From Vulcanimicrobiales bacterium (GTDB lineage: Bacteria; Vulcanimicrobiota; Vulcanimicrobiia; Vulcanimicrobiales; Vulcanimicrobiaceae), in assembly GCA_038231455.1 (NCBI GenBank), contig JBBRLI010000010.1, positions 1-64,000 of the forward strand: a stretch of 64,000 nucleotides of DNA, given 5' to 3'. The position numbers and the translations under genes were made by a program. The notes under the pieces were generated by a model, which worked only from the letters and a program-made list of their open reading frames with translations, was not told where the DNA came from and ran no database searches. This document shows positions 9,500 to 43,871 of the stretch, piece by piece. Each line of letters opens with the position of its first letter. The stretch's first letter is position 1.

Positions 9500-9856
9500 A
9501 TCGACCCAAAAGCGGGTTTCCCCGGCGCGGGCGGATCGCAAGATCCGCTCGCGTTTTTGCCTCAGTGGACGGCCGCGTTTGAAAACGCGAGTTCGAGTGA
9601 AGCCTTCGCTAAGCAACTTGGCACGGTGCTTTCGTCATACCTCGATTCGATGGCGCTCTCGCGCGACGCCGTTGACCGGGCGCTTGCCGCGGCAAACGTT
9701 CCTACGCGAACGGACCTTGCCGCACTCAGCGCGCGCGTCGATGCCCTCACGACGGCCCTCGATGAGGTTCTCGCCGCACTTACAATGACGAAAAAATCGA
9801 AGAAAAAATCGAAGAAAAAGCGCAAGGCGGCGGTCGCTAAGGGCGAATCGCACTAG
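9500..9856 (+). CDS. PHA synthase accessory subunit, PhaR/PhaE-like, with Lys-rich tail (ATC start inferred; first canonical start is TTG 9557)
   Basis: SEAFAKQLG..L..YLD and LAAANVPTRTDLAALSARVD resemble PhaR/PhaE; precedes phaB-phaC. Confidence 0.6.
   Translation: MDPKAGFPGAGGSQDPLAFLPQWTAAFENASSSEAFAKQLGTVLSSYLDSMALSRDAVDRALAAANVPTRTDLAALSARVDALTTALDEVLAALTMTKKSKKKSKKKRKAAVAKGESH
9526..9558 (+). terminator. Rho-independent terminator after phasin
   Basis: CGCGGGCGGATC-GCAA-GATCCGCTCGCG-TTTTT. Confidence 0.7.
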
Positions 9857-9893
9857 GGAAGGTCTGCCTCTATTCGCGTAGCATCGGTCCTAC

Positions 9894-10676
9894 ATGGATA
9901 CGATGCCGCGTCCGTCCCTCGAAATGGGAAAGCCACTCGCCGGTAAAGTCGCGCTCATTACGGGCAGTTCTCGTGGGATCGGGTCGGCGATCGCGACCGA
10001 ACTCGCGCGCGTCGGTGCGCATGTGGTGATCAACTACGTTCGTGGGAAAGACTCCGCGCAACACGTGGTCGAGCGCATCGTCGAGTCCGGCGGAAATGCG
10101 CACCACGAGATCGGCGACGTCTCGCGCGTCGATGACGTGCGCGCGATGATGGATCGCGTAAATGAAAAGTGCGGTCGCATCGATATTTTGGTGAACAACG
10201 CCGGCATCTTGCGCGACCGCACGTTCAAGAAAATGCAGCTCTCGGATTGGCACGAGGTGATCGATACCAATCTCACGAGCGTGATGAACTGCTGCCATAT
10301 CGCCGTACCGTATATGGTGGAGAAGAAGTTCGGACGCATCGTCAATATCAGCTCGTTCGTCGGGCAGATGGGGAATTTTGGCCAATCGAATTACTCGGCT
10401 GCAAAAGCCGGAATCATCGGCTTTACGAAATCTCTTGCGATCGAACTTGCGATGCAAGGTATCACGGTGAATGCGGTCTGCCCCGGGTTCGTTGAGACGG
10501 AGATGTGGGAGTCCGTTCCACCGAACATCAAAGAGAAAATTCTCGATCGTATCCCGATGCATCGCGTCGCGAACCCCGTCGAGATCGCGCAAGGCGTCCG
10601 ATTTTTAGTCACCGAGGCCGACTACATGACGGGCCAGTCGCTGAATATCAACGGCGGCATTTACATGGGGTGGTAG
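9894..10676 (+). CDS. phaB: Acetoacetyl-CoA reductase (SDR)
   Basis: TGSSRGIG, NNAGILRDRTFKKM, GNFGQSNYSAAKAG, LNINGGIYM; PHA context. Confidence 0.85.
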   Translation: MDTMPRPSLEMGKPLAGKVALITGSSRGIGSAIATELARVGAHVVINYVRGKDSAQHVVERIVESGGNAHHEIGDVSRVDDVRAMMDRVNEKCGRIDILVNNAGILRDRTFKKMQLSDWHEVIDTNLTSVMNCCHIAVPYMVEKKFGRIVNISSFVGQMGNFGQSNYSAAKAGIIGFTKSLAIELAMQGITVNAVCPGFVETEMWESVPPNIKEKILDRIPMHRVANPVEIAQGVRFLVTEADYMTGQSLNINGGIYMGW

Positions 10677-11638
10677 CCGAGACCGTCCACGCCTCGCATC
10701 TTCCGACGCGTACGCTGATGGCCCGCGGCAAGATGACGTTGCTCGCCTACGCCGCGACCGAAGCGCGTTACCACGTACCCGTTCTGATCGTGCCGCCGCT
10801 GATCGGCCGCCCCACCGTACTCGATCTTGCGCCCGGCCGCTCGTTCGTCGAGTCGCTCATCGCGCGCGGACTGCGGCCCTATTTGCTCGATTGGGGCGTA
10901 TTCGGATACGAAGACCGCGATCTGAGTTTTGCCGATCTGCTGCAAACGATCGACGATGCGGCCGACCGCGTGCGCGACGATGCCGCCAGTCGCGGTATCA
11001 CGTTTCTCGGTTACTGTATGGGCGGAACGCTGGTTGCGACGTATGCGGCGCGCGTCATGCTCGGCGAACCGGACCGGATCGTCACGCTCGCCGCGCCGAT
11101 CGATTTCGCTCATGGCGGTCGCCTCGCGCGCTGGTGTCAACCCGACGTCCTCGATCTCGATCGCGTGCTTGCCATCTTCGGCAATCTCCCCGCGCAACTG
11201 ATCGAGGCCGCATTCACCTTGCTGCGACCCGGGGCGCGGTTCGAAGCCTCGCAGAAAGACTCTCGTGATCCGGCGCATGCAGCGCTCGCGCAGTGGTCGC
11301 GCACGTGGCTCGATCTGCCGGGTGACGCCGCGCGCACGTGGATTGTCGATCTGTATCGCGAGAATCGCCTCTTCGCGGGCACGCTGACCGTCGATGGCAC
11401 GGGCGTGCGCCTTGGCGACATCACCGCCCCGCTGCTTGCAATCGGAGCCGACGAGGATCAAATTGCGCCTCCGCTCGCTTGCGCGCCGCTGGTGGACCTC
11501 GTGCGTTCGGCCGACCGCCGGTTTTCGAGCGTGCGCGGCGGGCACATCGCGCTCGTCGCTGGGAGCGGCGCGCGCAATGCGACCTGGCCGCTCGTCGAGG
11601 AATGGCTAGCCGCGCGGAGCACTCCAATCACTCGATGA
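10670..11638 (+). CDS. phaC: Class III/IV PHA synthase catalytic subunit
   Basis: VLDLAPGRSFV, YLLDWG, lipase box GYCMGG, Asp in DEDQIAP, His in GGHIAL. Confidence 0.8.
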   Translation: MVAETVHASHLPTRTLMARGKMTLLAYAATEARYHVPVLIVPPLIGRPTVLDLAPGRSFVESLIARGLRPYLLDWGVFGYEDRDLSFADLLQTIDDAADRVRDDAASRGITFLGYCMGGTLVATYAARVMLGEPDRIVTLAAPIDFAHGGRLARWCQPDVLDLDRVLAIFGNLPAQLIEAAFTLLRPGARFEASQKDSRDPAHAALAQWSRTWLDLPGDAARTWIVDLYRENRLFAGTLTVDGTGVRLGDITAPLLAIGADEDQIAPPLACAPLVDLVRSADRRFSSVRGGHIALVAGSGARNATWPLVEEWLAARSTPITR

Positions 11639-12405
11639 TCGCACTTCAGTTTCTCGGCACCGGCGGCGCGCGGTTCGTGGTCGCAAAACAAATTCGCGCC
11701 TCGGGCGGCATTTGGATGCGTTTCGGTGAGACGCAAATTCACGTCGATCCGGGTCCTGGAGCTCTCGTTCGGGCGCTCTCGGCAGTGCCACCGTGCGAAC
11801 CCCCGCTGCTCGATGCAATCGTGCTCTCGCACAAACATCTCGATCATGCGGGCGACGTGAACATCATGGTCGAGGCGATGTCCCAGGGCGGTTGGAAACC
11901 GCGCGGCGCGTTGATCGCACCGCGTGACGCCTTCGAAGGCGAGCCCGTGATTTTTCCGTACGTGCGACGTTTCGTGCCCCGCGAAGAAGTGCTCGTCGAA
12001 CGCGGCGGCCCGATCGCCATCAACGATGTCGAACTACGGACGTCGGTGCGCCACGTGCATCCAGTCGAAACGTACGGCATGCACTTTCGCTACGCTGGAA
12101 AAACCGTTTCGTACTTACCGTGCACGCGCTTCTTTCCGGGCCTAATCGAGGACTATCGCGCGCACGCCCCCGACGTGCTCATCCTCAACGTTCTGCGTTA
12201 CGCCGATACGATGGATGTCGATCACCTGACCTTCGATAACGCACGCGAACTCATCGACGGCATTCGGCCGGGCGCCGTCATCATGACGCACTTTGGAACC
12301 AAGATGCTCGAGCGCGATCCGCGCAAGCTCGCGCACGCGATCGAAGATGAATTCGGCGTGCGCGCCTATGCGGCGTACGACGGCTGGACGTACGACGTTG
12401 CTTGA
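11635..12405 (+). CDS. MBL-fold metallo-hydrolase
   Basis: FLGTGG, VDPGPG, SHKHLDHAGD, MTHFG. Confidence 0.85.
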   Translation: MIALQFLGTGGARFVVAKQIRASGGIWMRFGETQIHVDPGPGALVRALSAVPPCEPPLLDAIVLSHKHLDHAGDVNIMVEAMSQGGWKPRGALIAPRDAFEGEPVIFPYVRRFVPREEVLVERGGPIAINDVELRTSVRHVHPVETYGMHFRYAGKTVSYLPCTRFFPGLIEDYRAHAPDVLILNVLRYADTMDVDHLTFDNARELIDGIRPGAVIMTHFGTKMLERDPRKLAHAIEDEFGVRAYAAYDGWTYDVA

Positions 12406-12820
12406 GATCGAAAGCGCAAAGCCCGGTGAACTCGACGGATTTTGGCGCACGCACGACCGCGACTGGCGTTCGGCCCTATGGGATTTTCGCGTCGTTTGGC
12501 ACGAGCAAGGTCACGAGATCATCGCGCGCGTCGACGGCACGCTCGTCGGCGCGCTCAAGACGCGCATTGCCGCGTCGCTCGCACATGTGGAAGCGCTCAT
12601 CGTCGAGCCCGATTATCGGATGCAGGGCATCGGCGCGGCCCTCGTGCGGCGCTGCGAAGAGATCGCGAACTATTACAACTGCCACAAGGTAAGCGTCGAA
12701 GTCTTTCACGAGCACGACGTGCAACGGTTTTTCGAGGCCTGCGGCTATAAACTCGAAGCGGTTCTCCCGCAACACACCTTCAAACTCGATGTGGCCGTGA
12801 TGCGAAAATTTCTGCTCTAA
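12398..12820 (+). CDS. GNAT N-acetyltransferase
   Basis: VEPDYRMQGIGAAL motif A, FFEACGY. Confidence 0.8.
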   Translation: MLEIESAKPGELDGFWRTHDRDWRSALWDFRVVWHEQGHEIIARVDGTLVGALKTRIAASLAHVEALIVEPDYRMQGIGAALVRRCEEIANYYNCHKVSVEVFHEHDVQRFFEACGYKLEAVLPQHTFKLDVAVMRKFLL

Positions 12821-13910: not shown

Positions 13911-13946
13911 GACTACCATTTTACGATTGCCACGGTCAGATCATCA

Positions 13947-15368
13947 TTAAGGGTCGATGATCGTTTCGCGAGCGATCGGTAAAGTCACGTGAAACACGGA
14001 TCCGCCCTCCGGTCGCGGGGCGGCGCTGACGCGGCCTCCATGCACCCGCGCGATGCTTCGAACGATCGCAAGGCCAAGTCCCGTCCCCTCGACGGTGCGC
14101 GTGTGTGATTCATCGCTGCGGAAGAAGCGGTCAAACAGTTTCTCGGCGACCGCTGGGTCGATGCCCACGCCGCTATCGATCACGTCGACGAGTGCTTCGG
14201 TCTCCGAGGCGCCAGAACGTACGACGATCGTGCCGCGTTCGGTAAATTTGATCGCGTTTTCGATCAAGTTTGAGTAGAGCTGCCGAAGCAGCGATGGGTC
14301 GCCGACAACGACGGAACGAGTCCCGGCGCTTCCGTCATACGATAACGCGAGGTTTTTCCGCTCGGCGCGTTCGCGCGCGTGGACGACGACGTCCTCCACC
14401 AATCGTTCGAGGATCAGCGGCTCTTTCGGTACGTCCTCGCCGCTATCGGCTTTGGCAAGCGTGAGCATACCGTTCACCATTGCCGCAAGCGACGCACTTT
14501 CCGTGCGGATCGCCGCGAGGCTGTCGACGCGAACGGCCGGATCGCGATCCCCCCAGCGCTCGAGCATCTGTGCGTTTGCATTGATCACGGTCAGCGGTGT
14601 CTTGAGTTCGTGTGAGGCATCCGAGATGAACTGCCGTTCTCGCGCGAAGGCTTCTTGCAAGCGGCCGAGCATTGCGTTGAACGCACTAGCGAGCCGGCCG
14701 ACCTCATCGGCCCGACCGCTCCACGCGAGGCGTCGATCGAGCCGGTCAGAACCGATTTCCGTCATCGCGAGTGTCAGTTGCGTGATGGGCTCGATCGCCG
14801 CCTTGGCAATAAAAATCGAGACGCCGACGACGACGATCGCGGAGGCGAGCGCCACGAGCACGAGGACGCGCTTAGCGGTCAACAGCAGTCGATTGATGCT
14901 CTCCAGCCGCTCGGCAACGACGGCGATGTACTTTGGATAGGGGCCTTCGTAAATCGGCACGTCGTAGACGAGTAAATCTTCACCGCCGATTCGCTCGACG
15001 TGAAACGCGCCGTCGGCCGGATGATCGAGCGGCAGCGGAGCCGCGAGGTTTGAGGACTTGCCACGCGGGAGGCCATCGATGTTATCGATCGTGACGTAGG
15101 TCGTGGGGCTGGAATAATAGTCGAGTTGTTGCTGGTTGGTCAGCAGTCGGTCCGCATCGATCGGCAGTAAGAGAATCGGCGAACCGCCGCTTGCGTGCGA
15201 GGGATCGACGTCGTTCTGAATGCGCTCGGCGATCGTGCGAATCTGCGCGCGCGCCTGATCGTAGAGGATACGCTGAAAGGCAAACGAGAGCGCGATTGCA
15301 GCGATGGCGATGACGACGACGATCAGCGCCGCGTACCAGGCGGCGATACGCGTGCGAAGCGAGTTGAT
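13947..15368 (-). CDS. HAMP-domain sensor histidine kinase (ATC start inferred)
   Basis: ASHELKTPL H box, NLIENAIKF, GTGLGLAI; frame stays open 136 codons upstream of the tracked ORF and encodes NSLRTRIAAWY plus TM1. Confidence 0.88.
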   Translation of the reverse strand: MNSLRTRIAAWYAALIVVVIAIAAIALSFAFQRILYDQARAQIRTIAERIQNDVDPSHASGGSPILLLPIDADRLLTNQQQLDYYSSPTTYVTIDNIDGLPRGKSSNLAAPLPLDHPADGAFHVERIGGEDLLVYDVPIYEGPYPKYIAVVAERLESINRLLLTAKRVLVLVALASAIVVVGVSIFIAKAAIEPITQLTLAMTEIGSDRLDRRLAWSGRADEVGRLASAFNAMLGRLQEAFARERQFISDASHELKTPLTVINANAQMLERWGDRDPAVRVDSLAAIRTESASLAAMVNGMLTLAKADSGEDVPKEPLILERLVEDVVVHARERAERKNLALSYDGSAGTRSVVVGDPSLLRQLYSNLIENAIKFTERGTIVVRSGASETEALVDVIDSGVGIDPAVAEKLFDRFFRSDESHTRTVEGTGLGLAIVRSIARVHGGRVSAAPRPEGGSVFHVTLPIARETIIDP

Positions 15369-15374
15369 CGGGCG

Positions 15375-23581: not shown

Positions 23582-24048
23582 ACGCGGCGATCGCGATCCG
23601 GCACGGCGAGCACGCCGATCGTGAGTACGTATACGATTTAGGCCGCCGCACCGTCGATTCGAGCGTTTCGCCGCTCCGCGAGACGACGCTTGCGATCGTG
23701 GAACTCGCCTTCGAACGCCTAGCAGAATACGTCTTCGACCAATCGCACCTGGTGTTGCTCGCGCACGATGGCGAGCGCAATCTCGGGTTTTTGCTGTTGC
23801 TCGATTCCTTGCCCGATGAAGTGACGGCAGCACCGCAAGCATTCGTCGCCTACATGGCCGTCGAACCCGCCGCACGCCGCGGCGGCGTCGGTCGCGCGCT
23901 CATCGACGCGGCCGAATCCGTCGCGCGCGAACGCGGCTTGCCGCATCTCTCGCTCATGGTGACGGATGCCAATCAAGCCGCCGTGGATCTGTACGCGAGC
24001 GTCGGATTTCATACGGAGCGCCGCCTGCTCACCAAGGTGCTGAAGTGA
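23578..24048 (+). CDS. GNAT N-acetyltransferase
   Basis: VEPAARRGGVGRAL, NQAAVDLYASVGF. Confidence 0.85.
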   Translation: MNAAIAIRHGEHADREYVYDLGRRTVDSSVSPLRETTLAIVELAFERLAEYVFDQSHLVLLAHDGERNLGFLLLLDSLPDEVTAAPQAFVAYMAVEPAARRGGVGRALIDAAESVARERGLPHLSLMVTDANQAAVDLYASVGFHTERRLLTKVLK

Positions 24049-25172
24049 GTGCCACCTTAACGCGGCGCATCGTCGTCGGGGCGATCGTCGTCCTGGTTGC
24101 GCTTGCGCTCATTTACGTTGCATTAAAGATTCCAAAGACGCTCACCGTGTTCTTGATCGCTTCGTTCATCGCGTTCGGGGCGTACCCGCTTACTTCGCGC
24201 TTAGAGCGGCGGATGCCGCGTGCGGCGGCAATTGCCATCGTCTATCTCGGCTTGCTCGGCGCGCTTGTGGTCTTACTCTTACTCGTCATTCCGATTACGG
24301 TCGCGCAGGTTCAGGCGCTCTTACTCAATAGCCCTGATTACGTCGCCGGATCGCAGCAGCTCGTCGTGAAATTCGAGCAGGTCGTGCGCGCGCGCTTGGG
24401 ACCGCACGTGCAGTTTCCGAGTCTTGCCGATATGCAGACGCTCGTCGGCCAGCGCGTCGCCGGCGGTCTGTCCTACGTGATCGCCTCGGCCGGATCGATC
24501 GCGCTGCAGACGATTGGCGCGCTCTTCATCGGCATCTCATCGCTGATCCTCTCGATCTTTTTCCTCGCTCGCGGACGCGGCGTGCTGCGCTCGCTGCTCG
24601 TCTTCGTACCGCCGGCACGGCGTGAGTCCGTCCAGCTTTTGTTCACCGAAATCGCTTCGATCTTCGGCCATTTCGTTGCGGGGCAGGCGCTCCTGAGCGC
24701 AATCGTCGGCGTCTCGGTGTGGATCGTGCTCGCGCTCTCGCACTTCCAATTCGCCTTGCTCGTCGGCGTTGTGTGCGGCCTGGCCTACTCGATTCCGTTC
24801 GTCGGTATGCTCGTCGCGCAAGTGCTAGCAGCACTGCTGGCGCTGCCGCAGGGCGCCGGGATGGTGGTGTGGGTCAGCGTCGCGATCTTTGTGATCGCGC
24901 GTATCGGCGACAACGTGCTCGTCCCGAAAGTCATGTCCGAGTCCGTCGGCGTCTCGCCGATCGGCGTCATGTTTGCGGTTTTCGCCGGTGGCGAACTTTT
25001 CGGACTCCCCGGCTTGCTGCTCGGAATTCCCGCAGCGGCGCTCGTGAAAGTGCTCTTCCGCTTTTTCGTCACGCCGTATTTAGCGAGGATCGAGGCCGAA
25101 AAAATTCTCGAAGAACAGAACACGACGGTCGAGCTGAAGTCCGAAACGGTGATCTTGACCGTCAGTAGCTAA
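24045..25172 (+). CDS. AI-2E family transporter
   Basis: Multi-TM; IPFVG, DNVLVPKVM, GGELFGLPGLLLGIP. Confidence 0.88.
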   Translation: MSATLTRRIVVGAIVVLVALALIYVALKIPKTLTVFLIASFIAFGAYPLTSRLERRMPRAAAIAIVYLGLLGALVVLLLLVIPITVAQVQALLLNSPDYVAGSQQLVVKFEQVVRARLGPHVQFPSLADMQTLVGQRVAGGLSYVIASAGSIALQTIGALFIGISSLILSIFFLARGRGVLRSLLVFVPPARRESVQLLFTEIASIFGHFVAGQALLSAIVGVSVWIVLALSHFQFALLVGVVCGLAYSIPFVGMLVAQVLAALLALPQGAGMVVWVSVAIFVIARIGDNVLVPKVMSESVGVSPIGVMFAVFAGGELFGLPGLLLGIPAAALVKVLFRFFVTPYLARIEAEKILEEQNTTVELKSETVILTVSS

Positions 25173-29958: not shown

Positions 29959-30011
29959 GCCGGGCAGACATGTTGTGGCCTATACTCGAAGCGTGCCACT
30001 AGATGTTGTAC
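29957..30011 (+). promoter_or_regulatory. nrdR promoter with tandem NrdR-box-like sites
   Basis: TTGCCG-N18-TATACT; GGCAGACATGTTGTGG (29963) and CCACTAGATGTTGTAC (29996), 33 bp apart. Confidence 0.6.
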
Positions 30012-30028
30012 CGCTGGGGGACTAGGCT

Positions 30029-30475
30029 CTGATCTGCCCCACCTGCCGCAAGAGCGAGACGCGCGTTGTCGACAGCCGCGACGATGAGTCCGTGGTCCGG
30101 CGCCGCCGTGAGTGTCTGGCCTGCAAGCAGCGCTTCACGACCTACGAGCGGATCGAGGCACCGCGTCTCTTCGTCGTCAAGAAAGACGGTCGCCGCGAAC
30201 AGTGGAACCGCGACAAGGTGCTCTCGGGCCTCCGTCGCGCGTGCGAAAAACGACCGGTCTCCGATCCGCAGATGGACGAGGTCATCTCGAACCTCGAGCG
30301 CGAACTTTTTTCACGTGGCGAGAATGAAGTGGCCTCGACTCTGGTGGGCGAGAAGCTGATGGAAGCCCTCAAGGTGCTCGATAAGGTGGCGTATATCCGA
30401 TTTGCCAGTGTCTATCGCTCGTTCCGGGACGTGGAGAGCTTCCAAGCCGAACTCTCGGACCTGCTTGCCAAATAA
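30029..30475 (+). CDS. nrdR: Transcriptional repressor NrdR (CTG start inferred)
   Basis: CPTC...[26 protein letters not shown] cone; [15 protein letters not shown]. Confidence 0.95.
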
Positions 30476-30920
30476 TAACGTCCGCATCGGCGTCCTCCGC
30501 TTGCCGGAGGGCGCGGATTTGCCCTTGCCGGCCTATATGAGCAGTGATTCGGCCGGGGCCGATGTCGTCGCCGCCGTTACCGAGGACCTCGTCCTCGCGC
30601 CGCTGGCACGCGCACTCGTTCCGACCGGTTTTGCACTCGAGATCCCGGCGGGCTATGAAGTGCAGTTGCGTCCACGCAGCGGCCTTGCGCTCAAGGCCGG
30701 CCTGACGCTGCTCAACGCGCCAGGCACGATCGATGCGGATTACCGCGGGCCGGTCGGGGTGATCGTCGCGAATTTGGGAAGCGAACCGTATACGATCCGG
30801 CGCGGGGACCGTATCGCGCAGATGGTCGTCGCGCCGGTTATTCAGGCGATCTTCCGCGAAGTGACGGAGCTTGGCACAAGCGATCGCGGTTCGGGCGGTT
30901 TTGGGAGTACGGGGCGATGA
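30465..30920 (+). CDS. dut: dUTP diphosphatase
   Basis: [37 protein letters not shown]. Confidence 0.96.
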
Positions 30921-31891
30921 AGGTCTATGTCGTCGGCGCAGGCGCCGTCGGACGTTATCTTGGTGATTCGCTTGCGAAAATCGGCAACGACATCGTCTAC
31001 GCGCCGCGCGATCTCGCTGCCGTCGAACGTATCGAGGCCGATCTTGCGATCGTTGCGGTGAAGTCGTTCGATACGGATGGCGCGATCGCAACGCTCCAGC
31101 GCGCACTTGCCGATCCGAGCAAGACGACGATCGTTACGCCGCAGAACGGCGTTGGGAACGAAGAAAAGCTTGCCGCGGCGTTCGGCGTCGATGCGATCAT
31201 GTCGTGCGCGCTAACCGTTCCCGTCGGCGTCGATCGCGATGGCCAATCGCAGGCCTCGAACACCGGCGGAATTGCGTTCGCACCGGTCGGTGCGTCAAGC
31301 CACAATTGGGTGCTCGCGGCCTTCGGTTCGACGGGGATTCCCGTGCAGTCGGCGAGCGACTATCGCTCGCTCAAATGGTCGAAGCTCGCGCTCAACGTCG
31401 TCGCGAACGCCTCGTGTGCGATCCTCAACGTCTTACCCGAGCGGCTCGTTCATCTCGATAAAGTATTCGAGTTTGAAATTCGCGCGATCCGCGAAGTGCG
31501 CGCGGTGATGCGGTCGCTCGGCATCGCTCCGATGGATCTGCCGCGCTATCCCGTGCGAGCATTGCAGGCGATCGCGCAGATGCCGACGCCCGTCGCGCGA
31601 GCGATTCTTGCCAGCCGCGTCGCGGGAGCGCGCGGCCGCAAGCCTCCCTCGCTCTTACAGGACTTGCGCGCAGCGAAAAGCCAAACCGAAGTCGACGTCC
31701 TCAACGGTGCGGTCGCGGCGGCTGGGCGTGCGGCGGGCGTTGCAACGCCGGTGAACGCGGTCTATGCACGAATCGTGAGCGATATCGCGAACATGCCGCA
31801 ACTGTGGGCGAAATACCGCGAACGCCCCGATGCCCTGGACGCGGAAATCCGAGCCGAAATTGCGCGTTCTGCACGCGCCGTCCCCGCTTAA
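30917..31891 (+). CDS. panE: Ketopantoate reductase family protein
   Basis: GAGAVG, AVKSFD, QNG, KWSKL..N, SLLQDL...TEVDVLNG. Confidence 0.8.
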
Positions 31892-35533: not shown

Positions 35534-36730
35534 TTGAGCGGGCGCCTTGCGGCGTTTTTCGTGGCGCTCGTCAGCGCCGAAATTGCGGGGCAAATTCAGG
35601 AAGTCGCAATCGGCTGGTACATCTTCACGCTGCACCATCGTGTGTTTGATTTAGGACTCGTCGGTCTGACGTTGTTTCTCCCGACGATCGTACTCGCGCT
35701 GGTTGTGGGGCTCGCTGCCGACCGCTTCAGCCGCAAAGCGATTATCATTCTCACGATCGCGTGCGAGGTCGTCGCGACGGGCGCGTTCGTCGTCTTATCG
35801 AACCTGCACGTCGATCGACTGGGACCGTATCTCGCGCTCATTCTGCTGCTCGGAATCGCTCGCGCATTCGCCGCGCCGGCCGAACGCGGCATGTTGCTCA
35901 ACCTCGTCTCGCGCGACCGCTACATGCACGTTTCATCACTCTTTTCATCGATTCGCAAAGTCGTCCAAGTCGCCGGACCGGCGCTGGGCGGAGCGCTGGT
36001 AGCGATCGGCACGCCCCTCGCACTCACGACGTCGATCGTGATGCTCGCCATCGGTGGTGTGGCCATTGCGTTCTTACCGCTCCCGGGCCGCAAGCCGGAT
36101 GCGCCGGGCGCACAAACGACGTGGCACGACGCACTCGGTGGACTGCGATTCATTCGCGCGCAGCCCATTATTTTGGGAGCGATCTCGCTCGATCTCTTCG
36201 CGGTCCTCTTCGGCGGCGCCACCGCGCTCTTACCGGCGTTCGCCGATACGATTTTGCACGTGGGACCGATCGGCTTAGGCCTCTTGCGCGCCGCGCCATC
36301 GGTCGGCGGTTTCATCATCGCCGTGTTGCTGGCACGCAAACCGCCAAAGAATCACGTCGGTCGGACGCTGCTGATTTCGGTTGCGGTCTTTGGAGTCGGG
36401 ACCGTCGTCTTCGGAGTCTCGCAATCACTGTGGCTCTCGCTCGTTGCACTCGCTGTGCTCGGCGGCGCGGATATGATCAGCGTTGCGATCCGCTCGGGAC
36501 TCGTTCAACTCAACACGCCCGATGCGATGCGCGGACGTGTCTCGGCCCTCGAAAATGTCTTTATCGGCGCGTCGAACGAACTGGGCGCTTTCGAGTCGGG
36601 GACGCTCGCCGCGCTGCTCGGAACGGTTCCGAGCGTCGTCTTCGGCGGATCGGCAACGATCGTCGTCGTTGTCCTGTGGGCGCTGGTCTTTCCGCGCTTA
36701 GCAAAAATGGATGCGCTACACGAGGCGTGA
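35534..36730 (+). CDS. MFS transporter (EntS/H+ antiporter-like)
   Basis: GLAADRFSRK, SLDLFAVLFGGATALLP, MRGRVSA, SNELGAFESG. Confidence 0.9.
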   Translation: MSGRLAAFFVALVSAEIAGQIQEVAIGWYIFTLHHRVFDLGLVGLTLFLPTIVLALVVGLAADRFSRKAIIILTIACEVVATGAFVVLSNLHVDRLGPYLALILLLGIARAFAAPAERGMLLNLVSRDRYMHVSSLFSSIRKVVQVAGPALGGALVAIGTPLALTTSIVMLAIGGVAIAFLPLPGRKPDAPGAQTTWHDALGGLRFIRAQPIILGAISLDLFAVLFGGATALLPAFADTILHVGPIGLGLLRAAPSVGGFIIAVLLARKPPKNHVGRTLLISVAVFGVGTVVFGVSQSLWLSLVALAVLGGADMISVAIRSGLVQLNTPDAMRGRVSALENVFIGASNELGAFESGTLAALLGTVPSVVFGGSATIVVVVLWALVFPRLAKMDALHEA

Positions 36731-39103
36731 TGCTGAGGTCGGTTGACCGCTCCGGTGGATCGGAAGTTCGACGATGAATTCCGTTCCGAATCCGGGTGCC
36801 GCTTGCATTTCGAAGCGTTCCGCGAACATGCGAATGAGAAAGAGACCGCGACCGTCTTCGGCCAACGCTTCGCTCGGAAGCGCGGTGACGAGTTCGGCAA
36901 GGCCCGGCCCCGAGTCGCGCAGGCGCAAGATGGGCCGGTCTGCCGTCCAGTCGATGCGCACTTCCACCAGGCCCGGCGCGTGTTCGACGGTATTTGCCAG
37001 CAGTTCGCCGAGGATCAATTCGGTATTGTAGAGATCGCACTCGTGCGCGGCGTGTTGACGTAAGAATCCCGTTAATTCGTGGCGCGCAGCGTATGCGCTT
37101 TGCGCGTGACTGGAATGGAAGCGCCACGTTTTGGAGAGTGACTGTTCACGCGTGTCCGCGTGCAAGCGTTTTGCACTGAATCGAAGCAAGAGCAGCGCAA
37201 CATCATCCGAGGGGTTCTTTTCGCAAAAGATGGACTTTAAGACGGCTTCGGCGCTTAGCGGTGCCGAATCGTTGGCGAGACTTTGGAGGGCGCAGAGGAG
37301 TTGCCGTTCGCCCGTATCGATATTGCGTTCGAATTCGATGGCGCCATCGGTGTAGAGAGCGACGAGCGCGCGAGGCGAGAGGGTGACCGAATGCGTTCCA
37401 ATCGTCAGCGTGCCGCCGGTCACAAATCCCGTTCCCAGCGGACCGTCGCTCGGCGCGGACAGAATTCGCGCGCCCTCGGGCATCACGACGATCGGTGCGG
37501 GATGCCCGGCACTTGCATACGTAATATCGCCGGTGAGCGGATCGAAGTAGGCGAGCAACGCCGTTGCGATCGTATCGCTTTGCGCGCGCAGCACACGATC
37601 GGCCATGACGAGGACGGCGCCGGGATCATCGTTTTCGATTGCCTGCGTGAAGATGGTTTGGCGTAAGCGACCTGCGACGATCGCCGCGTCCAGTCCGTGT
37701 CCCGCTACATCGCCAATTGAGATCAAGAGGCGGCCGTCAGGCATGAGAAATGCATCGTACCAATCGCCGCCGACGACGGCATCGCTTTCGGCCGGCCAGT
37801 ATGTCGCATCGAGCGTAAAATTTTCATGCACGGGAAGCGATTGCGGTAAGAATGCGTCTTGCATCATCGAGGCAATACGTTTGTCGCGATCGGCGTTGCG
37901 GCGTTGTACGTCGATGTCGGTGTTCGAACCGAACCAGCGGATCACGCGTCCGTCGCTATTCCGAAACGGTGCGATACGAGTGAGGAACCAGCGAAACTTA
38001 CCGTCCGCCCCGCGCAGGCGGAATTCCATCTCGAAAGCACTGCCGCGCGCGATTGACTCCGGCCACTCGCGCATGACTTCGGGCAGGTCCTCGGGGTGAT
38101 GGACAGACTGCCATCCCCAGCCGGCGGCTTCGTCGTGCGTCTGGCCCGTGTAGTCGTACCAGCGCTTATTATACCAATCGATCGATCCATCGGCGGTCGC
38201 CGTCCAGAGAATTTGCGGAACGGAATCGCCGAGCGCGCGAAACTCGATATCGTGGTCGGCCTTCGCCCGTTCGACTGCCGCTGAGCGCTCTAAACCCGCG
38301 GCGCGCCTCGCCGAGCGAATCGAGTCGCCCGCGACGGAGATCAACACCGCGAGGCCCGAAATCAACGAGAGGATGCGCCCGACGTAGGATCCCATCGAAA
38401 AGCGCACGAGCGACGAGGCGATGAGAAAGATTTCGCCGATTGCGGCAACGATCGCGATTGCTACCCATAATTCGAGGTCGCTGAGCTGGCGGAAATTGCG
38501 CAGGAGGCGGACAAGTGCGATTACATCGAGGCCGATTGCGATTGCGTAGATGGACCACAACACGCTCGTGAACGCGCCGTTCGGGAGTAGTAGCGCCGGG
38601 AGCATCGCCGTCGCGCCGAGCGCACAGGCGACCGCGATTAGCGAAACAGCAAAAGCGGCGCCGATCACGCGGTCGCTGCGTTGCTCGCGGCGTTCGGGGG
38701 TCCACGTGTAGGCGCAGATCAATGCAGCCCAGCCCAAATGCCAGAACGCCCACATCCACGGCGGCGTTTGGAATCCAAAGGTCGTACCGCTCGTCGCGGG
38801 CAGGGTAGCGACGTTCCCGAGAATTAGGGGCCAGGAGAGCGTGTACGCGCAGGCAAGGATCGTCGCGCGCCGGCTGCGGTGTTCGCGAGCCCGCGCGAAG
38901 AGCGTCGCGGCCGTGAGGAACTCCGTCGTGACCAAAATGGCGCCGTACGCGCCAAAAAACGTCGCGGAAGGTCCAAGCAAAATGTGACGCGTCGACCACG
39001 CCAGGATTGCCACGCCCACCATGAGCCCGACGATGATTGACGCTCGGAGTTGCTCGTTTACGGTCGCGGTGCGTTCGCCTGGCGACCAGGGCTCGTTTTG
39101 GAT
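36716..39103 (-). CDS. Membrane sensor (MASE4-like)-PAS-SpoIIE phosphatase-HATPase fusion (ATC start inferred; first ATG at 39022)
   Basis: Multi-TM N-terminus; PAS (WQSVHHPED, DGKFRWF); VGGDWYD/GDVAGHG/YTDG/DD; GELLANTVEHA, GRGL. Confidence 0.85.
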   Translation of the reverse strand: MQNEPWSPGERTATVNEQLRASIIVGLMVGVAILAWSTRHILLGPSATFFGAYGAILVTTEFLTAATLFARAREHRSRRATILACAYTLSWPLILGNVATLPATSGTTFGFQTPPWMWAFWHLGWAALICAYTWTPERREQRSDRVIGAAFAVSLIAVACALGATAMLPALLLPNGAFTSVLWSIYAIAIGLDVIALVRLLRNFRQLSDLELWVAIAIVAAIGEIFLIASSLVRFSMGSYVGRILSLISGLAVLISVAGDSIRSARRAAGLERSAAVERAKADHDIEFRALGDSVPQILWTATADGSIDWYNKRWYDYTGQTHDEAAGWGWQSVHHPEDLPEVMREWPESIARGSAFEMEFRLRGADGKFRWFLTRIAPFRNSDGRVIRWFGSNTDIDVQRRNADRDKRIASMMQDAFLPQSLPVHENFTLDATYWPAESDAVVGGDWYDAFLMPDGRLLISIGDVAGHGLDAAIVAGRLRQTIFTQAIENDDPGAVLVMADRVLRAQSDTIATALLAYFDPLTGDITYASAGHPAPIVVMPEGARILSAPSDGPLGTGFVTGGTLTIGTHSVTLSPRALVALYTDGAIEFERNIDTGERQLLCALQSLANDSAPLSAEAVLKSIFCEKNPSDDVALLLLRFSAKRLHADTREQSLSKTWRFHSSHAQSAYAARHELTGFLRQHAAHECDLYNTELILGELLANTVEHAPGLVEVRIDWTADRPILRLRDSGPGLAELVTALPSEALAEDGRGLFLIRMFAERFEMQAAPGFGTEFIVELPIHRSGQPTSASRLV

Positions 39104-39750
39104 TGTTTCGGCCTCCCGCTCGCGGGTTTTTTAGGCCGTACCCTTGCTAGGTTGCAAAGAAACGTGCCCGACGAGACTGTTCAGCCGAAGGTCAATCCTC
39201 TATGCCTTCGTGTCTAAGCGAAGGCCGATACCCGCACCATGCTCGACTGGAGCAACCGGCGACGGGGCCGGGATTACGGCATCAATAGGGGTCTGGTACG
39301 CGACGAAACTCGCCGGTGTGTTCGGGCTTCAAGTTCCAAGACTGATGATCGTCATAGGGCGATTATCGTCGGCGTACGGGGCCTCGTCCGTAAGCGTGCG
39401 TACACTCCGGGATACCAACTGCGCCGAAGCTTACATCGGACGCTTGTGATCGATGCACGAAGGCGCGCTTTTAATCATTGGTTCTTCCGATGGGTTAATG
39501 ACCGCATTGCAGGCAGCGTTGAGTATCCCGTAACCGGGAATCGAATTGATCGGTTCCGGATTGCGTTCGACCGCCTTGATACTCGTTAAAACGTTCGCAC
39601 GTACGGGCGCTGATAACGCAAAAATCAGAAAAAAGACGTTTACTCTGGTAAATAGTCGCACATCGAGCATCGTTCAATCCGCAGGGACGGGAAGTCTTCG
39701 TCAAACGTGATATTCGTCGCAGCGCTCGAGGTCGGCACTCCGCGCGCAGA

Positions 39751-41292
39751 TTATGCTGCGCTCGATCGGGCGCCGCGCTCGATCATCCGGTAGAGTAATG
39801 CTTCTGCGACATGCTCGCGGGTGATGCGTTCGGCCGCCGCAAGATCGGCGATCGTACGTGCGACGCGGGCGATACGATCGAATGCTCGGGCGGAGAGTGC
39901 ACCGCGTGCCATCGCGATGCGGATGAGGTCCATCGCTGCGGGTTCGAGCGAGCAAAGCGCGCGCACGTCGGCGCCTTTGATTTGGGCGTTGCAGGCGATG
40001 CCCGATTCGGCGAGGCGCGCGCTTTGGCGATCGCGCGCGGCATCGACCCGAATCCGAATGGCCTGCGATGATTCCGCCGGCTCGGCGTCGACCATCTCTT
40101 CGAACGAGATGCGCGAAACGGTGACGTGCAGATCGATTCGATCAAGCAGCGGTCCGGAAAGCTTTGCGACGTACTTATCGACCAGCGCATCATCGCAGCG
40201 GCAGTCGTTCGTGCGCGTTCCGCGATAGCCGCACGGACACGGATTCATCGAAGCGACCAGCGTGAATCGCGCCGGATACGTAAACGTTCCCGCGGCTCGA
40301 GCGAGCGTCACCGTCCCCTCTTCGAGCGGCTGGCGCATCACCTCGATTGCGCTACGGCTGAATTCCGGGAGTTCATCGAGGAAGAGTACGCCGTGCTGCG
40401 CGAGCGAAATCTCGCCAGGCTTCGGGATCGTTCCGCCGCCGACGAGCGCCGTCTGCGAAATCGTGTGGTGCGGCGAACGAAACGGTCGGGTCGCGACGAT
40501 CTGCGGTGTTGCTCCGAGCAGTCCGGCGACCGAGTAAATCTTCGTCACGTCGAGCGACTCGGCTTGGCTCATGGCAGGCAGAATTGAGGGGAGCCGTCGA
40601 GCGAGCATCGTCTTGCCGCAGCCCGGCGGTCCGACAAGCAACACGTTATGCCCGCCGGCGGCGGCGATCTCGAGCGCGCGTTTCGCGAGCACCTGGCCCC
40701 GTACGTCCGCAAAGTCGCCGTCGTCGGTACTCGGTGTCCGATCGAGCACGGGCGGAGTCGTCCGGCGACGCCACTTTGCGCCGTGTCCGAGCACAACGGC
40801 TATTGCATCAGAGAGCGTCGCGACAGCGTAGACCTCGAGCCCGTCGAGCAAGGTCGCCTCGGCCAGATTCGCGACTGGTAAGATCACTTTCGTGAAGCCG
40901 TCCGCGCGCGCGGCGATGAGCATCGGCAACATTCCGGCAACGGCCCGAAGCGATCCATCGAGCGCGAGTTCGCCCATCGTCACAAAGTTGGCGAGCGACG
41001 CCCCACCAAGCTGATCGTCGGTCGCGAGAAGCGCGAGGGCGATTGGCAGATCGTAACCCGGGCCGGCTTTGCGAATATCTGCGGGGGCTAAGTTTACCAG
41101 CAATCTGCCAGGTGGATACCCAAAGCCGGAATTGACGATGGCTGCGCGTACACGATCGCGCGCCTCATTTAAAGCACGATCGGGGAGCCCGATGATCGAG
41201 AAGGTCGGTACGCCGGGCGAACTATCGGCCTCGACGCGCACGATATGCCCGTCGACGCCGCGCATCGCGCACGTAAAAGCAGCAGAGAGCAT
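39751..41292 (-). CDS. comM: YifB/ComM family Mg-chelatase-like AAA+ helicase
   Basis: NLAPADIRK.G, GPPGCGKT, PFRSPHH, LDELPEF, MNPCPCG, LLDRID. Confidence 0.93.
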   Translation of the reverse strand: MLSAAFTCAMRGVDGHIVRVEADSSPGVPTFSIIGLPDRALNEARDRVRAAIVNSGFGYPPGRLLVNLAPADIRKAGPGYDLPIALALLATDDQLGGASLANFVTMGELALDGSLRAVAGMLPMLIAARADGFTKVILPVANLAEATLLDGLEVYAVATLSDAIAVVLGHGAKWRRRTTPPVLDRTPSTDDGDFADVRGQVLAKRALEIAAAGGHNVLLVGPPGCGKTMLARRLPSILPAMSQAESLDVTKIYSVAGLLGATPQIVATRPFRSPHHTISQTALVGGGTIPKPGEISLAQHGVLFLDELPEFSRSAIEVMRQPLEEGTVTLARAAGTFTYPARFTLVASMNPCPCGYRGTRTNDCRCDDALVDKYVAKLSGPLLDRIDLHVTVSRISFEEMVDAEPAESSQAIRIRVDAARDRQSARLAESGIACNAQIKGADVRALCSLEPAAMDLIRIAMARGALSARAFDRIARVARTIADLAAAERITREHVAEALLYRMIERGARSSAA

Positions 41293-41637
41293 GCGGCTCC
41301 ATCACACGCACCGCTCGCGCCGCTAGGGTACTCGTATATTTTAAGGCTGGTCAACGTCGTGAGATCCTTAAACGGGGCACAAGAAGATCTTTCGCTAGAG
41401 ACGCTAGCTACCAATTTGACTCTGCGGCTTACGGTGGCGCCCGCCAAGCGAACCATTTGCTCGAGCCGAGGCCTTTTTCGCCTATTCGCGTGTCTTCGCA
41501 TGATTTGCAATCACGCATCGATCGACGCCCCCTCGTGCCCCGTATTGCGCGAAGGCATCGATTTCCGGCCTCCGGAACGCTGGAATCCATGATTCCTTTC
41601 AGTTTCCACACCGTGCACAGGTGTGCGGGCCGCCACT

Positions 41638-42858
41638 GTGGATAACGGCTCGCACGAGCGCCCCGAAGCGCACGTTGACACCGCGGCCGTTCACGCCGGG
41701 TCCTTCCCACAACCAGAAAATCGTCCGTCCAGCCCGGCGCTCTATCAGGCCTCATCGTACGAGTTTGCAGACCTCGAGGAAATGGAAGCGATCTATGGTG
41801 GAAGCCGCCAGGGATCGATTTATGGGCGATACGGGGGCCCAAACGCGCTCCATTTCGAGTCCGCCATGGCCCAATTGGAGTTTTCTGAGGATGCGGTCGG
41901 CGCCGCGAGCGGCATGGCCGCGATCGACGCGGCGCTTGCTCTCGTGCTTCGGGCAGGTGATCGCGTGATCTGCACTACGGAACTGTACGGTGGCACGTAT
42001 TCACTTCTTGAGAATGATTACCAAGAACGAGGCGTGATCGTCGATTTCGTCGATCAAACGGACCTCGCGGCCGTGGAAGCCGCGTTCGAATGCGGCAAAG
42101 CAAAGGCCCTCTATGTAGAGTCCTTAACAAACCCCCTCATGCACGTAGCCGACATCCCGCGTCTGGCCACGATTGCACACCGGCATGGGGCGATCTTGAT
42201 CGTTGATGCGACGTTCGCGTCGCCAGCCCTTGCACAGCCCGTTCGTTGGGGAGCGGATATCGTGCTCCATAGCGTTGGAAAATATTTGGGCGGACATGGC
42301 GACGTGGGCGCGGGCGTGCTCTCGGGTCGCCGCGACCTCATCGAGCGCGCCCGGGCCTATCTCGTGCGCACGGGGGCTACGCTCCCGCACTTCGAGGCGT
42401 GGCTCGCGCTGCGCGGCGTGCGGACCCTCGCGCTGCGGATGACCCGCCACGCGGAGAACGCGCGTGCGGTCGCGGCGGCCCTTGCGCGCATGCCCGGGAT
42501 CGTACGCGTGCATCACCCGTCGCTTCCCGGCCATCCGCAACACGCGCTAGCGCGCGAACTCTATCCACAGGGGACCGGCGGCATCGTCGCATTCGACATC
42601 GTCGGCGGGCGGCCCGAGGTCGCTCAGTTCGTCAAAGGACTCGAGAGGATCGCGATCGTTCACAGCCTCGGCGAAATCGCATCGACGATTTCCTATAGCG
42701 TCGCAAGCTCGCATCGCCCCGTTCCGAAAATAACGCGCGACAAGCTCGGTGTGACCGATGCGACGCTCCGTCTTTCGTGCGGCATCGAACACGCAGACGA
42801 CATCATCGCCGACCTCGCGCGCGCGTGCGCAGGGGTAACCGTACGCGTTCCCGCATAG
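41638..42858 (+). CDS. PLP-dependent trans-sulfuration enzyme (Cys/Met metabolism family)
   Basis: YGRYGGPN, SGMAAI, ESLTNP, VDATF, HSVGKYLGGHGD, RLSCGIE. Confidence 0.9.
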   Translation: MDNGSHERPEAHVDTAAVHAGSFPQPENRPSSPALYQASSYEFADLEEMEAIYGGSRQGSIYGRYGGPNALHFESAMAQLEFSEDAVGAASGMAAIDAALALVLRAGDRVICTTELYGGTYSLLENDYQERGVIVDFVDQTDLAAVEAAFECGKAKALYVESLTNPLMHVADIPRLATIAHRHGAILIVDATFASPALAQPVRWGADIVLHSVGKYLGGHGDVGAGVLSGRRDLIERARAYLVRTGATLPHFEAWLALRGVRTLALRMTRHAENARAVAAALARMPGIVRVHHPSLPGHPQHALARELYPQGTGGIVAFDIVGGRPEVAQFVKGLERIAIVHSLGEIASTISYSVASSHRPVPKITRDKLGVTDATLRLSCGIEHADDIIADLARACAGVTVRVPA

Positions 42859-42878
42859 CTCGCGGCTGGAGGATTTCT

Positions 42879-43871
42879 ATGGTTCAACGTATTCTCACGT
42901 GCGCGGTTGCCGTCGCACTCGGCGTAACGTTCGCTGGTTGTTCGGTGAAGACCGAGACGAAGACCACGATCACATCAGCGGACGGCACAAAAACGACGAC
43001 GAGCGCTTCGTCGGCTGCTCCCGGAAGTGGTTCGAAAGTCATCGGTTTCTCGGTACAGAATCGTGAAGCGCAGTTCTATCAGCAGCTCGAAGCGGGCATG
43101 AAAACCGAAGCCGAAAAAGCGGGCTACACCGTCACGGTCGTCGACGCGAGCCGCGATAACTCCAAACAGCAAAGTCAGATCGAAGACTTTATCTCGCAAA
43201 AAGTCGCCGCGATCGTCATCACGCCGTACGATTCCAAGGCCATCGGCAGTGCGATCGCCGAAGCGAATAAGGCCGGCATTCCGGTCTTTACGGCGGATAT
43301 CGCGAATGCATCGAGCAATGGCACGGTCATCTCGCACATCGCAAGCGACAACGTTCAAGGCGGCGCGCAGGCCGCGAAACTCATGTGTGCGGCGCTCGGC
43401 GGAAAAGCCGGCGCAGTTGCAATTCTCGACGAGCCCGAAGTCTCGAGCGTCCAGGATCGCGTGAGCGGCTTCAAAGCGGAACTCGCAAAGAGTTGCCCGG
43501 GTGCAAAAATCGTCGCCGATATCGACGGTGGTGGCGAGCGAGCCAAAGCCAGCAGCGCGACCGACGACATCCTGCAGTCGCATAAAGATCTCAAAGGCGT
43601 CTTCGGGATCAACGACGACTCGGCGCTCGGTGCCGCAAAGTCGATCCAAGCCGCCGGCATGGCGGGTAAAGTGCTGGTCGTCGGATACGATGCAACGCCC
43701 GAAGCGCAAACCGCAATCAAAGCCGGTACGATGTACGGCGATGCGATCCAACACCCGGATCAAATCGGTGTGAAGACGATCGATGCGATCACCGGTTATT
43801 TCGCGGGCAAGAAACCCGCCGCGAAGATTGCGGTCCCCGTCGGAACGTTCACCAAGGCCGACGCGAAATAG
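42879..43871 (+). CDS. Sugar ABC transporter substrate-binding lipoprotein (RbsB-like)
   Basis: FAGC lipobox; AGIPVF, IASDN, DRVSGF, INDDSALGA, VGYD. Confidence 0.88.
   Translation: MVQRILTCAVAVALGVTFAGCSVKTETKTTITSADGTKTTTSASSAAPGSGSKVIGFSVQNREAQFYQQLEAGMKTEAEKAGYTVTVVDASRDNSKQQSQIEDFISQKVAAIVITPYDSKAIGSAIAEANKAGIPVFTADIANASSNGTVISHIASDNVQGGAQAAKLMCAALGGKAGAVAILDEPEVSSVQDRVSGFKAELAKSCPGAKIVADIDGGGERAKASSATDDILQSHKDLKGVFGINDDSALGAAKSIQAAGMAGKVLVVGYDATPEAQTAIKAGTMYGDAIQHPDQIGVKTIDAITGYFAGKKPAAKIAVPVGTFTKADAK

Follow-up and report, generated by a model that had tools for sequence, protein, structure and literature searches.

The DNA analysed here, referred to as the window, comprises 64,000 nucleotides (G000:C10:1-64000) of a draft metagenome-assembled genome, G000, from an uncultured bacterium of soil and ice. 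Several of its genes appear to begin with codons other than ATG, GTG or TTG, foremost among them nrdR, which is predicted to start with a CTG that is conserved across the family. Together with similar genes elsewhere in the genome and in its relatives, these cases probably represent real near-cognate starts (CTG, ATC, ATT and ATA), which would be tolerated where a Shine-Dalgarno (SD) sequence or coupling to a preceding gene recruits the ribosome, and a few of which would be kept by selection. We read the weak starts mostly as tolerated drift or as tuning and not as the mark of a broken fidelity system.

The G000 assembly has a size of 3.71 Mb in 106 contigs, a G+C content of 61% and a completeness of 93.67%. 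It was compared with 40 relatives, namely G001 of the same genus, 23 further genomes of the same family, five of a sister family and 11 of a third family of the same class. Four of the genomes (G009, G020, G022 and G036) are unpublished and add rows to all counts over relatives. A sequence-only reading of the window had proposed five near-cognate starts (ATC 9500, ATC 15368, CTG 30029, ATC 39103 and ATA 43868), and all five codons are found at these positions. The predicted starts of nrdR and of a histidine kinase are confirmed by orthologue comparison and those of a phaR-like gene and a SpoIIE fusion are supported, whereas the start of an rbsA-like gene is ambiguous between ATA 43868 and ATG 43886. 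Two of the sites had been described as boxed in by an in-frame stop, which is true for the kinase and nrdR and extends to the SpoIIE fusion.

Start codons of nrdR and of the histidine kinase

30029..30475, plus strand: nrdR (Zn_ribbon_NrdR and ATP-cone domains), start CTG 30029-30031; from the sequence, Pfam and the orthologue column
30016..30021, plus strand: SD-like GGGGGA, 7 nt 5' of the nrdR CTG; from the sequence and from purine-rich tracts at similar distance in 80 loci
13947..15368, minus strand: HAMP-HisKA-HATPase_c histidine kinase, start ATC 15368-15366; from the sequence, Pfam and the orthologue column

The 5' end of nrdR reads TAG (30023-30025), GCT, CTG (30029), ATC, TGC, with the TAG in frame. 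Both domains of the predicted protein score above the Pfam cut-offs (54.5 bits for Zn_ribbon_NrdR and 74.2 bits for ATP-cone), in agreement with the architecture of NrdR, and the first CxxC motif of the zinc ribbon starts two codons past the CTG. Among 30 loci read in G000 and its relatives, the start column is occupied by CTG in 22 of the 24 loci of the G000 family, the two others (G002 and G021) having ATG. All five loci of the sister family show GTG, and ATG is found in the sole locus read of the third family, with ATG also in G037 of that family. In the 80 best species-level loci the column holds CTG in 74, GTG in five and ATG in one. An in-frame stop lies 5' of the CTG, with no canonical start in between, in 43 of the 74 CTG loci, and a purine-rich GGAGG, GAGAGGA or GGGGG is situated a few bases 5' of the column in the set of 80. 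The best contig matches to NrdR are assigned to taxa such as Candidatus Eremiobacteraeota, Vulcanimicrobiota, Candidatus Baltobacteraceae, Candidatus Lustribacter, Velthaea and Elarobacter.

The pattern of conservation differs from that of ordinary coding positions. All 80 loci have NTG in the start column and the third base is G throughout, vs a mean major-allele share of 0.64 and a maximum of 0.91 at 16 four-fold degenerate control sites within the first 30 nrdR codons. The ten codons 5' of the column encode no conserved residue, the commonest residue at any of them occurring in at most 28 of the 80 loci. Since NTG and its third-base G are invariant and the upstream codons are unconserved, the column appears to be conserved as a start codon rather than as a codon for leucine. 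Moreover, the first base is C in 74 of the 80 loci, where each of T, G and A would make the start stronger, which suggests that the weak codon is kept by selection. Taken together, the comparisons confirm CTG 30029 as the predicted start of nrdR, conserved across the family.

Contigs assembled from three other sequencing runs span the nrdR start. Among the differences listed for them (544 further differences exist) is a change at 30026, and none falls on 30029-31; these runs were compared as contigs, so that depth is uninformative and uncovered parts do not count as evidence. A single run contains the whole stretch and may be the source of the assembly. Among the sequencing runs found to contain the nrdR region there is no RNA run.

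Further upstream, nrdR is preceded by two palindromes:

~29966-29979 and ~29995-30010, plus strand: two NrdR-box-like imperfect palindromes, 5' of nrdR; read from the sequence

They lie about 30 bp apart, and similar ones precede nrdR in relatives, for example cccacaagatgtgggg and cactagatattgggg. The label follows the NrdR-box consensus. If the palindromes are operators, they suggest that nrdR is autoregulated.

The histidine kinase begins with the sequence TAA (15377-15375), CGC, CCG, ATC (15368-15366), in which the TAA is the stop codon of the upstream response-regulator gene, 6 nt before the ATC. Past this TAA the ATC is the sole near-cognate codon, and the first canonical start follows only at 14960, 136 codons downstream. 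Orthologues of the kinase are located near nrdR in conserved synteny. In G001, whose kinase is 92% identical, the arrangement TAA-N6-ATC is the same and the ratio of nonsynonymous to synonymous differences (pN/pS) is 0.09. The start column of 28 aligned orthologous loci shows ATG in five and GTG in six, others beginning a few codons upstream, and in G024 the gene is boxed in as TAG CCG CTG. On the combined comparisons, the predicted ATC start of the kinase is confirmed.

Weak starts in the window, the genome and its relatives

All stop-to-stop open reading frames (ORFs) of G000 were compared with 800-kb samples from two genomes, G005 of the same family and G037 of another one, and cases were collected in which the first ATG, GTG or TTG lies downstream of the point where similarity sets in. 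The raw signal, 10-16% of gene pairs, is mostly artefact. These rejected hits are shadow ORFs or conserved genes upstream that had been translated off-frame, such as window 30659-31891 across dut and 23820-25169. Filters for overlap, for codon-position-3 periodicity of mismatches and for composition, together with reading by eye, were applied. The automated output comprised 10 candidates from the 370 pairs with G005 and 12 from the 409 pairs with G037, including some 5-9-codon extensions and three positive controls, the +1 frameshift of prfB and the selenocysteine codons of selD and fdhA. Excluded from the final set were the extensions of 5-9 codons, which are too short to judge, tatC (candidate C50), where a canonical ATG gives the typical start MPFTEHL, and, as uncertain, a membrane protein gene (C1:261704) with an out-of-frame ATG at its start.

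Usable orthologue pairs were available for 687 distinct G000 genes, and after curation 11 of these (~1.6%) have no usable ATG, GTG or TTG. These are the kinase, nrdR, a yqeK-like HD protein gene, a selA-like gene, parA, pth, an oppB-like permease gene, recR, sir2, mreB and the gene of a metallo-β-lactamase (MBL) hydrolase. The value is a lower bound, as the screen registers a gene only if the next canonical start is 5 or more codons away and misses both genes with a chance in-frame canonical codon upstream (infC) and lineage-specific genes (the phaR-like gene and the SpoIIE fusion). Of the 47 window genes with pairs in the screen two were caught, and rbsA is an ambiguous third. The rate of about 5 in 70 genes (7%) that had been deduced from the window is accordingly too high for conserved genes.

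Off-frame conservation around dut was observed within the window itself. The off-frame translation of dut (30360-30920) is conserved between genera and mimics an 86-residue N-terminal extension of the next gene (window 30360-31891). Such conservation is a pitfall for homology-based start calling in genomes of high G+C content.

Several of the curated genes can be followed across 30 genomes. The mreB gene has a single fixed start column before the motif [DEQH]-I-G-I-D, with an SD upstream, and the column holds TTG in 16 genomes, GTG in eight, ATG in two, ATC in three (G000, G001 and G009) and CTG in one (G014). A non-canonical start of recR is found in eight of the 30, as ATT (G000, G001), ATC (G014, G015, G018) or CTG (G005, G009, G013), each time 0-6 nt past the stop of ybaB; 21 genomes are canonical and one is unclear. 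For pth, no canonical codon occurs within the 14 codons before R-[LI]-[IV]-x-G-L-G-N-P-G in 25 genomes, seven of which are boxed in by a stop inside this stretch, and GTG or TTG is present in the remaining five. G000 and G001 read TAG GCT/CCT CTG at this position, and in four genomes of the sister family an ATA overlaps the upstream TAG. Among the unpublished genomes, G009 accounts for one of the three ATC starts in mreB (the third) and for one of the CTG starts in recR, G036 for one TTG of mreB and G022 for the GTG orthologue of the phaR-like gene described below, and G009, G020 and G022 contribute rows to the nrdR, rbsA and kinase tables.

For parA, G000 and G001 share an ATC situated 1 nt past the upstream TAG, which in G001 is boxed in by a TGA, and in four other genera an ATG or GTG is available upstream. 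The oppB-like permease gene has CTG behind GGAGG in G000, G001, G005, G011, G013 and G015, TTG in G014 and ATG in G037. ATC behind GAGG is found for the MBL hydrolase in G000, G001, G013 and G014, and sir2 has ATC in G000 and G001. As a side observation, the first codons of parA, directly past the ATC (G000 C44, ~4570-4600), contain the 16-mer TGTTTCACGTGGAACA, which resembles the parS consensus. Junctions of the form ATAG, in which a possible ATA start overlaps an upstream TAG, recur at the pth loci L232-L235 of the sister family and L215-L229 of the G000 family and at window 43868-43871 (rbsA).

Assembly errors, private mutations or true starts further downstream, combined with non-coding or off-frame similarity upstream, might mimic such a pattern. 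G000 is a draft in 106 contigs, many raw hits of the screen were truly off-frame translations of conserved upstream genes and the downstream ATG of rbsA is plausible, all of which would fit an artefact. However, 11 genes of this kind carry identical non-canonical start codons in G000 and G001 (11/11), while 24-53% of their synonymous sites differ (pS 0.24-0.53) and pN/pS amounts to 0.01-0.27. Identity of all 11 codons at this divergence excludes error, private mutation and pseudogenes, so that the outcome named beforehand as refuting the near-cognate starts, assembly error or private mutation, did not materialise. The same codons are moreover found in dozens of other genomes, and none of the differences listed for the contigs of the three other runs falls on the nrdR CTG. 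Mismatches within the N-terminal extensions peak at codon position 3, and no ATG, GTG or TTG occurs between the upstream in-frame stop and the conserved N-terminus of nrdR, the kinase, pth, mreB, recR and the SpoIIE fusion, whereas rbsA has its ATG six codons past the ATA. Starts at the downstream codons would leave NrdR without the first CxxC of its zinc ribbon, deprive the kinase of its sensor and transmembrane regions and of part of HAMP, and shorten Pth by 48 residues. An artefact is therefore very improbable as a general explanation; in the case of nrdR, the kinase, mreB, recR and pth it has largely been disproved.

The three remaining genes of the window were analysed individually:

9500..9856, plus strand: phaR/phasin-like small gene, probable start ATC 9500-9502; from the sequence and orthologue N-termini
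36716..39103, minus strand: MASE4-PAS-SpoIIE(PP2C)-HATPase_c_2 fusion, probable start ATC 39103-39101; from the sequence, Pfam and homologue N-termini
39112..39117, minus strand: SD GGGAGG, 8 nt 5' of the ATC of the SpoIIE fusion; from the sequence
43868..45361, plus strand: rbsA-like ABC ATPase, start ATA 43868-43870 or ATG 43886-43888; from the sequence, Pfam (ABC_tran twice) and orthologue starts

The ATC of the phaR-like gene is located 2 nt past the TAG (9495-9497) of an upstream phasin-like gene. With the frame open from 9245, no canonical start occurs before TTG 9557, and upstream of that TTG the sole near-cognate codon is ATC 9500. Matches of the protein to the Pfam families Phasin and PHA_synth_III_E are weak and below cut-off, and orthologues were found in three other genomes (G001, G013 and G022). 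G001 keeps the ATC 2 nt past the upstream TAG and has TTT in place of TTG 9557. The orthologues of G013 (ATG) and G022 (GTG) possess a homologous N-terminal extension, begin 20-30 residues before a conserved Q-[WF] motif and have a DP[FL] motif in common with the G000 extension. The orthologue N-termini and the TTT of G001 place the beginning of the coding region upstream of 9557, with ATC 9500 as the probable start. The surrounding region (8600-12400) represents a polyhydroxyalkanoate (PHA) gene cluster, comprising the phasin-like gene (9024-9497), the phaR-like gene, a FabG/PhaB-like reductase gene (9894-10676) and further ORFs downstream.

In the SpoIIE fusion, an in-frame TAA (39133-39131) is followed by nine codons and then by ATC 39103. 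The first ATG lies 27 codons past the ATC, within transmembrane helix 1. No orthologue covering residues 1-150 was detected in the 40 relatives. Three database homologues with 46-50% identity in the MASE4 part have N-termini 26-37 residues before the column of the G000 ATG and a complete first membrane helix. ATC 39103 is probably the start and is the best reading of this 5' end.

The ATA of the rbsA-like gene overlaps the stop TAG (43869-43871) of an rbsB-like gene. A P-L-L-x-M motif 5' of the ATG is conserved, and outgroups have L at the Met column together with a start further upstream, which indicates that the segment is coding in relatives. The relatives start 7-10 codons before this Met with ATG, GTG, TTG or apparently CTG, and the gene of G017 is boxed in as TAG ACG ACC CTG. 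Where G014 has ATG, G000 and G001 have ATA. In the genus of G000 and G001 the start may have moved to the downstream ATG.

The sequence context was compared for 15 G000 cases, i.e. the curated 11, the phaR-like gene, the SpoIIE fusion, infC and the ATA of rbsA. In 13 of them the weak start has either an SD-like tract 6-9 nt upstream (seven cases) or a position 0-6 nt from, or overlapping, an upstream stop (six cases), while yqeK and selA could be assigned to neither class:

nrdR: SD-like GGGGGA, spacing 7 nt
SpoIIE fusion: SD-like GGGAGG, spacing 8 nt
mreB: SD-like GGAG, spacing 9 nt
oppB-like permease: SD-like GGAGG, spacing 7 nt
infC: SD-like GGAGG, spacing 6 nt
MBL hydrolase: SD-like GAGG, spacing 7 nt
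sir2: SD-like GGAG, spacing 8 nt
recR: 0 nt past the upstream stop
parA: 1 nt past the upstream stop
phaR-like gene: 2 nt past the upstream stop
pth: 3 nt past the upstream stop
kinase: 6 nt past the upstream stop
rbsA (ATA): overlaps the upstream stop

Unambiguous canonical starts of G000 (sets of 137 and 152 genes) are ATG in 53-61%, GTG in 24-33% and TTG in ~14%, and by a crude score 18-35% of them have an SD core of at least 4 nt at a distance of 4-11 nt. SD use in this genome thus looks low and TTG starts are frequent.

Close proximity to upstream stops raises the question whether ribosomes might enter from the preceding gene by stop-codon read-through or frameshifting, which would make a start codon needless. 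A single TAA or TAG is all that separates the kinase, pth, recR and nrdR of G000 from a preceding ORF in the same frame, as such recoding would demand. Elsewhere, however, the junctions are out of frame: recR of G014 and G018 begins 1 nt past the stop, parA 1 nt and the phaR-like gene 2 nt past a TAG. Moreover, mreB, oppB, the MBL hydrolase gene, sir2, infC and the SpoIIE fusion each possess an SD and are not directly preceded by another gene, and the codons before the nrdR CTG are unconserved. We consider recoding very improbable.

Initiation machinery and origin of the weak starts

Relaxed initiation fidelity throughout the lineage, as had been suggested for the window, would imply that an altered initiation factor 3 (IF3), initiator tRNA or 16S rRNA lets near-cognate codons initiate efficiently and start codons decay freely. 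Three tRNA(CAU) genes are present in G000, one of which encodes an initiator of textbook type, showing the C1xA72 mismatch as well as three G-C pairs that adjoin the anticodon loop; a crude check of the 46 tRNAs of G000 revealed no further initiator-like tRNA. The 16S rRNA gene was not found in the G000 assembly (93.67% complete), and five relatives possess the usual 3' end GGATCACCTCCTTTCT with the CCUCC anti-SD and a normal 790 loop. The core of IF3 (residues 5-168), compared at the level of the alignment, matches solved IF3 structures (chains of 171-180 residues) over its full length. Marks of relaxed fidelity in the initiator tRNA, in the 16S decoding and anti-SD region (five relatives) or in the aligned IF3 core were not found, and the inspected parts look conventional.

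In E. coli, infC, which encodes IF3, starts with AUU, and this near-cognate start is the basis of IF3 autoregulation, which works because IF3 rejects such codons; pcnB also starts with AUU. The infC gene of G000 shows a GGAGG, followed after 6 nt by ATA, i.e. a near-cognate start behind an SD. Across 30 genomes the infC start is ATA in 23, ATC in five and ATT in two, and is near-cognate in all. Its conservation throughout the class argues that IF3 would still discriminate against such codons in this lineage, a near-cognate infC start being the classic sign of such discrimination. The G000 protein (C7:133538-134266) carries in addition an acidic, His- and Glu-rich C-terminal tail of ~70 residues, which is absent from the solved IF3 chains and, in a search of the relatives, aligns fully in G001, G018 and G023 only.

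Non-canonical starts in housekeeping genes (pth, mreB, recR and parA) that turn over between genera, the high share of TTG and the IF3 tail would all be compatible with relaxed fidelity. On the other hand, the tail aligns in few genera only, the initiator tRNA displays all canonical discrimination features, the anti-SD and the 790 loop of the five relatives are canonical, and infC has retained ATA, ATC or ATT with a strong SD in all 30 genomes. More than 98% of conserved genes keep ATG, GTG or TTG, and the weak starts cluster at SD or coupling sites, which would be needless if fidelity were lax. Relaxed fidelity is thus not supported by the machinery, and we consider it unlikely. The other suggestion of the sequence-only reading, that weak starts tune expression, fits infC as well as nrdR, where stronger starts are one base away from the prevailing CTG, and for nrdR the tuning reading is supported.

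Real near-cognate starts at sites of ribosome recruitment, our preferred reading, would involve the following steps. The ordinary initiator tRNA (fMet-tRNA) presumably reads the CTG, ATC, ATT and ATA starts. The identity of the start codon is loosely held in this lineage, drifting between genera among TTG, GTG, ATG, ATC and CTG at fixed, SD-defined positions. A weak codon might be tolerated where an SD-like tract 6-9 nt upstream compensates or, alternatively, where a preceding stop 0-6 nt away or overlapping permits termination-reinitiation coupling. Drift and G+C pressure (TTG to CTG; ATT or ATA to ATC) could produce such starts, a scheme with which the preference for CTG and ATC would be consistent. 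In a few genes the weak codon would be selected to hold expression low, as for the repressor gene nrdR (CTG) and for infC (ATA, ATC or ATT), in keeping with the known autoregulation of IF3.

Comparison with known systems and consequences for annotation

The principle of near-cognate initiation has long been known. The infC gene of this lineage resembles that of E. coli in its near-cognate start behind an SD, a design by which a single gene is kept at low or regulated expression, and the CTG of nrdR is conserved comparably. Unlike E. coli infC, nrdR uses CTG and not AUU, and control by the level of IF3 is not indicated. To our knowledge nrdR is not known as a gene with a near-cognate start, and a literature search found no paper on start codons of Eremiobacterota or on a CTG start of nrdR.

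In Hecht et al. (bioRxiv 10.1101/063800), CUG, AUA, AUC and AUU are reported to initiate best in E. coli after AUG, GUG and UUG, at 1-2% of AUG. The same work gives 99.95% canonical starts for 34 annotated genomes and two natural E. coli genes as confirmed near-cognate; its per-genome start-codon counts in Tables S3 and S5 may bear on the baseline. The lineage studied here uses exactly these four best near-cognates, and among 687 conserved genes it does so in at least 11 (mreB, pth, recR and parA belong to them), vs the two confirmed genes of E. coli. According to Belinky et al. 2017 (PMC5622118), AUG, GUG and UUG starts switch under weak selection and weaker starts go along with stronger SD conservation, while switches to CUG or AUU number ~6 in ~69,000 ancestral canonical starts of 36 genome groups. 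By comparison, ATC appears three times and CTG once in the mreB column of 30 genomes and recR is non-canonical in 8/30, although the divergence here is far deeper and the rates are not directly comparable. Termination-reinitiation coupling at overlapping or abutting genes, for example at ATGA and TAATG junctions, is a known mechanism (PMC10666635). The six of 15 weak starts that lie 0-6 nt past or overlap a stop are similar, with the ATAG junctions of rbsA and of pth in the sister family mirroring ATGA. In contrast to classical coupling, translation would restart here at a near-cognate codon and not at ATG or GTG, and compensation by coupling would have to be assumed.

Several points weigh against the interpretation as real and partly selected near-cognate starts. 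All of these starts are predictions from sequence. The value of 1.6% rests on a home-made screen with hand curation, in which nrdR, as well as yqeK against G005, had been removed by the composition filter and were restored by hand, and yqeK and selA have no exactly assigned start codon. A GTG within the conserved block might serve as start in several of the pth genes, and in rbsA the ATG 43886, six codons past the ATA, is an equally good start, giving the acceptable N-terminus MRGIEKSF. The relatives are not independent samples, and genome relatedness weakens the argument for selection on the nrdR CTG. An enrichment of near-cognate starts in the lineage is likely when judged against published annotation-based figures, but those of bioRxiv 10.1101/063800 and PMC5622118 are biased by gene callers that disallow such codons.

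Most of what is known of this phylum comes from metagenome bins, and callers restricted to ATG, GTG and TTG would miscall its N-termini. The public NrdR model of the window, for instance, has 127 residues and starts with MVRRRRECL, vs 148 residues from the CTG, whereby the first half of the zinc ribbon is lost. The public model of the SpoIIE fusion comprises 768 instead of 795 residues and begins inside the first membrane helix, and the kinase would lose 136 residues under canonical-only start calling. In other genomes the NrdR models have 148 or ~158 residues, varying with the caller and with chance upstream codons.

It is conceivable, though doubtful, that Eremiobacterota, or at least the Baltobacteraceae-like family, have adopted a shifted regime in which CTG and ATH are routine starts in several percent of genes and SD strength or reinitiation sets the rate. 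If so, gene catalogues of the phylum would systematically truncate or miss a few percent of proteins, and the CTG of nrdR would represent a selected expression set-point for the control of deoxynucleoside triphosphate supply in slow-growing oligotrophs. Apart from this possibility, the genomes offer a natural series of start-codon swaps (TTG, GTG, ATG, ATC and CTG) at fixed SD-defined positions in essential genes. Swaps of the mreB type, together with the family-wide CTG on a repressor, nrdR, make the buffering of weak codons by SD or coupling testable.

Beyond start codons, two kinds of recoding sites were observed in G000. The prfB gene (C11) contains the classical +1 frameshift site CTT TGA C. 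In addition, G000 uses selenocysteine, with in-frame TGA codons at the conserved selenocysteine positions of selD (C7) and of an fdhA-like, formate-dehydrogenase-like gene (C4), and a tRNA-SeC(tca) gene is located at C33:338-431.

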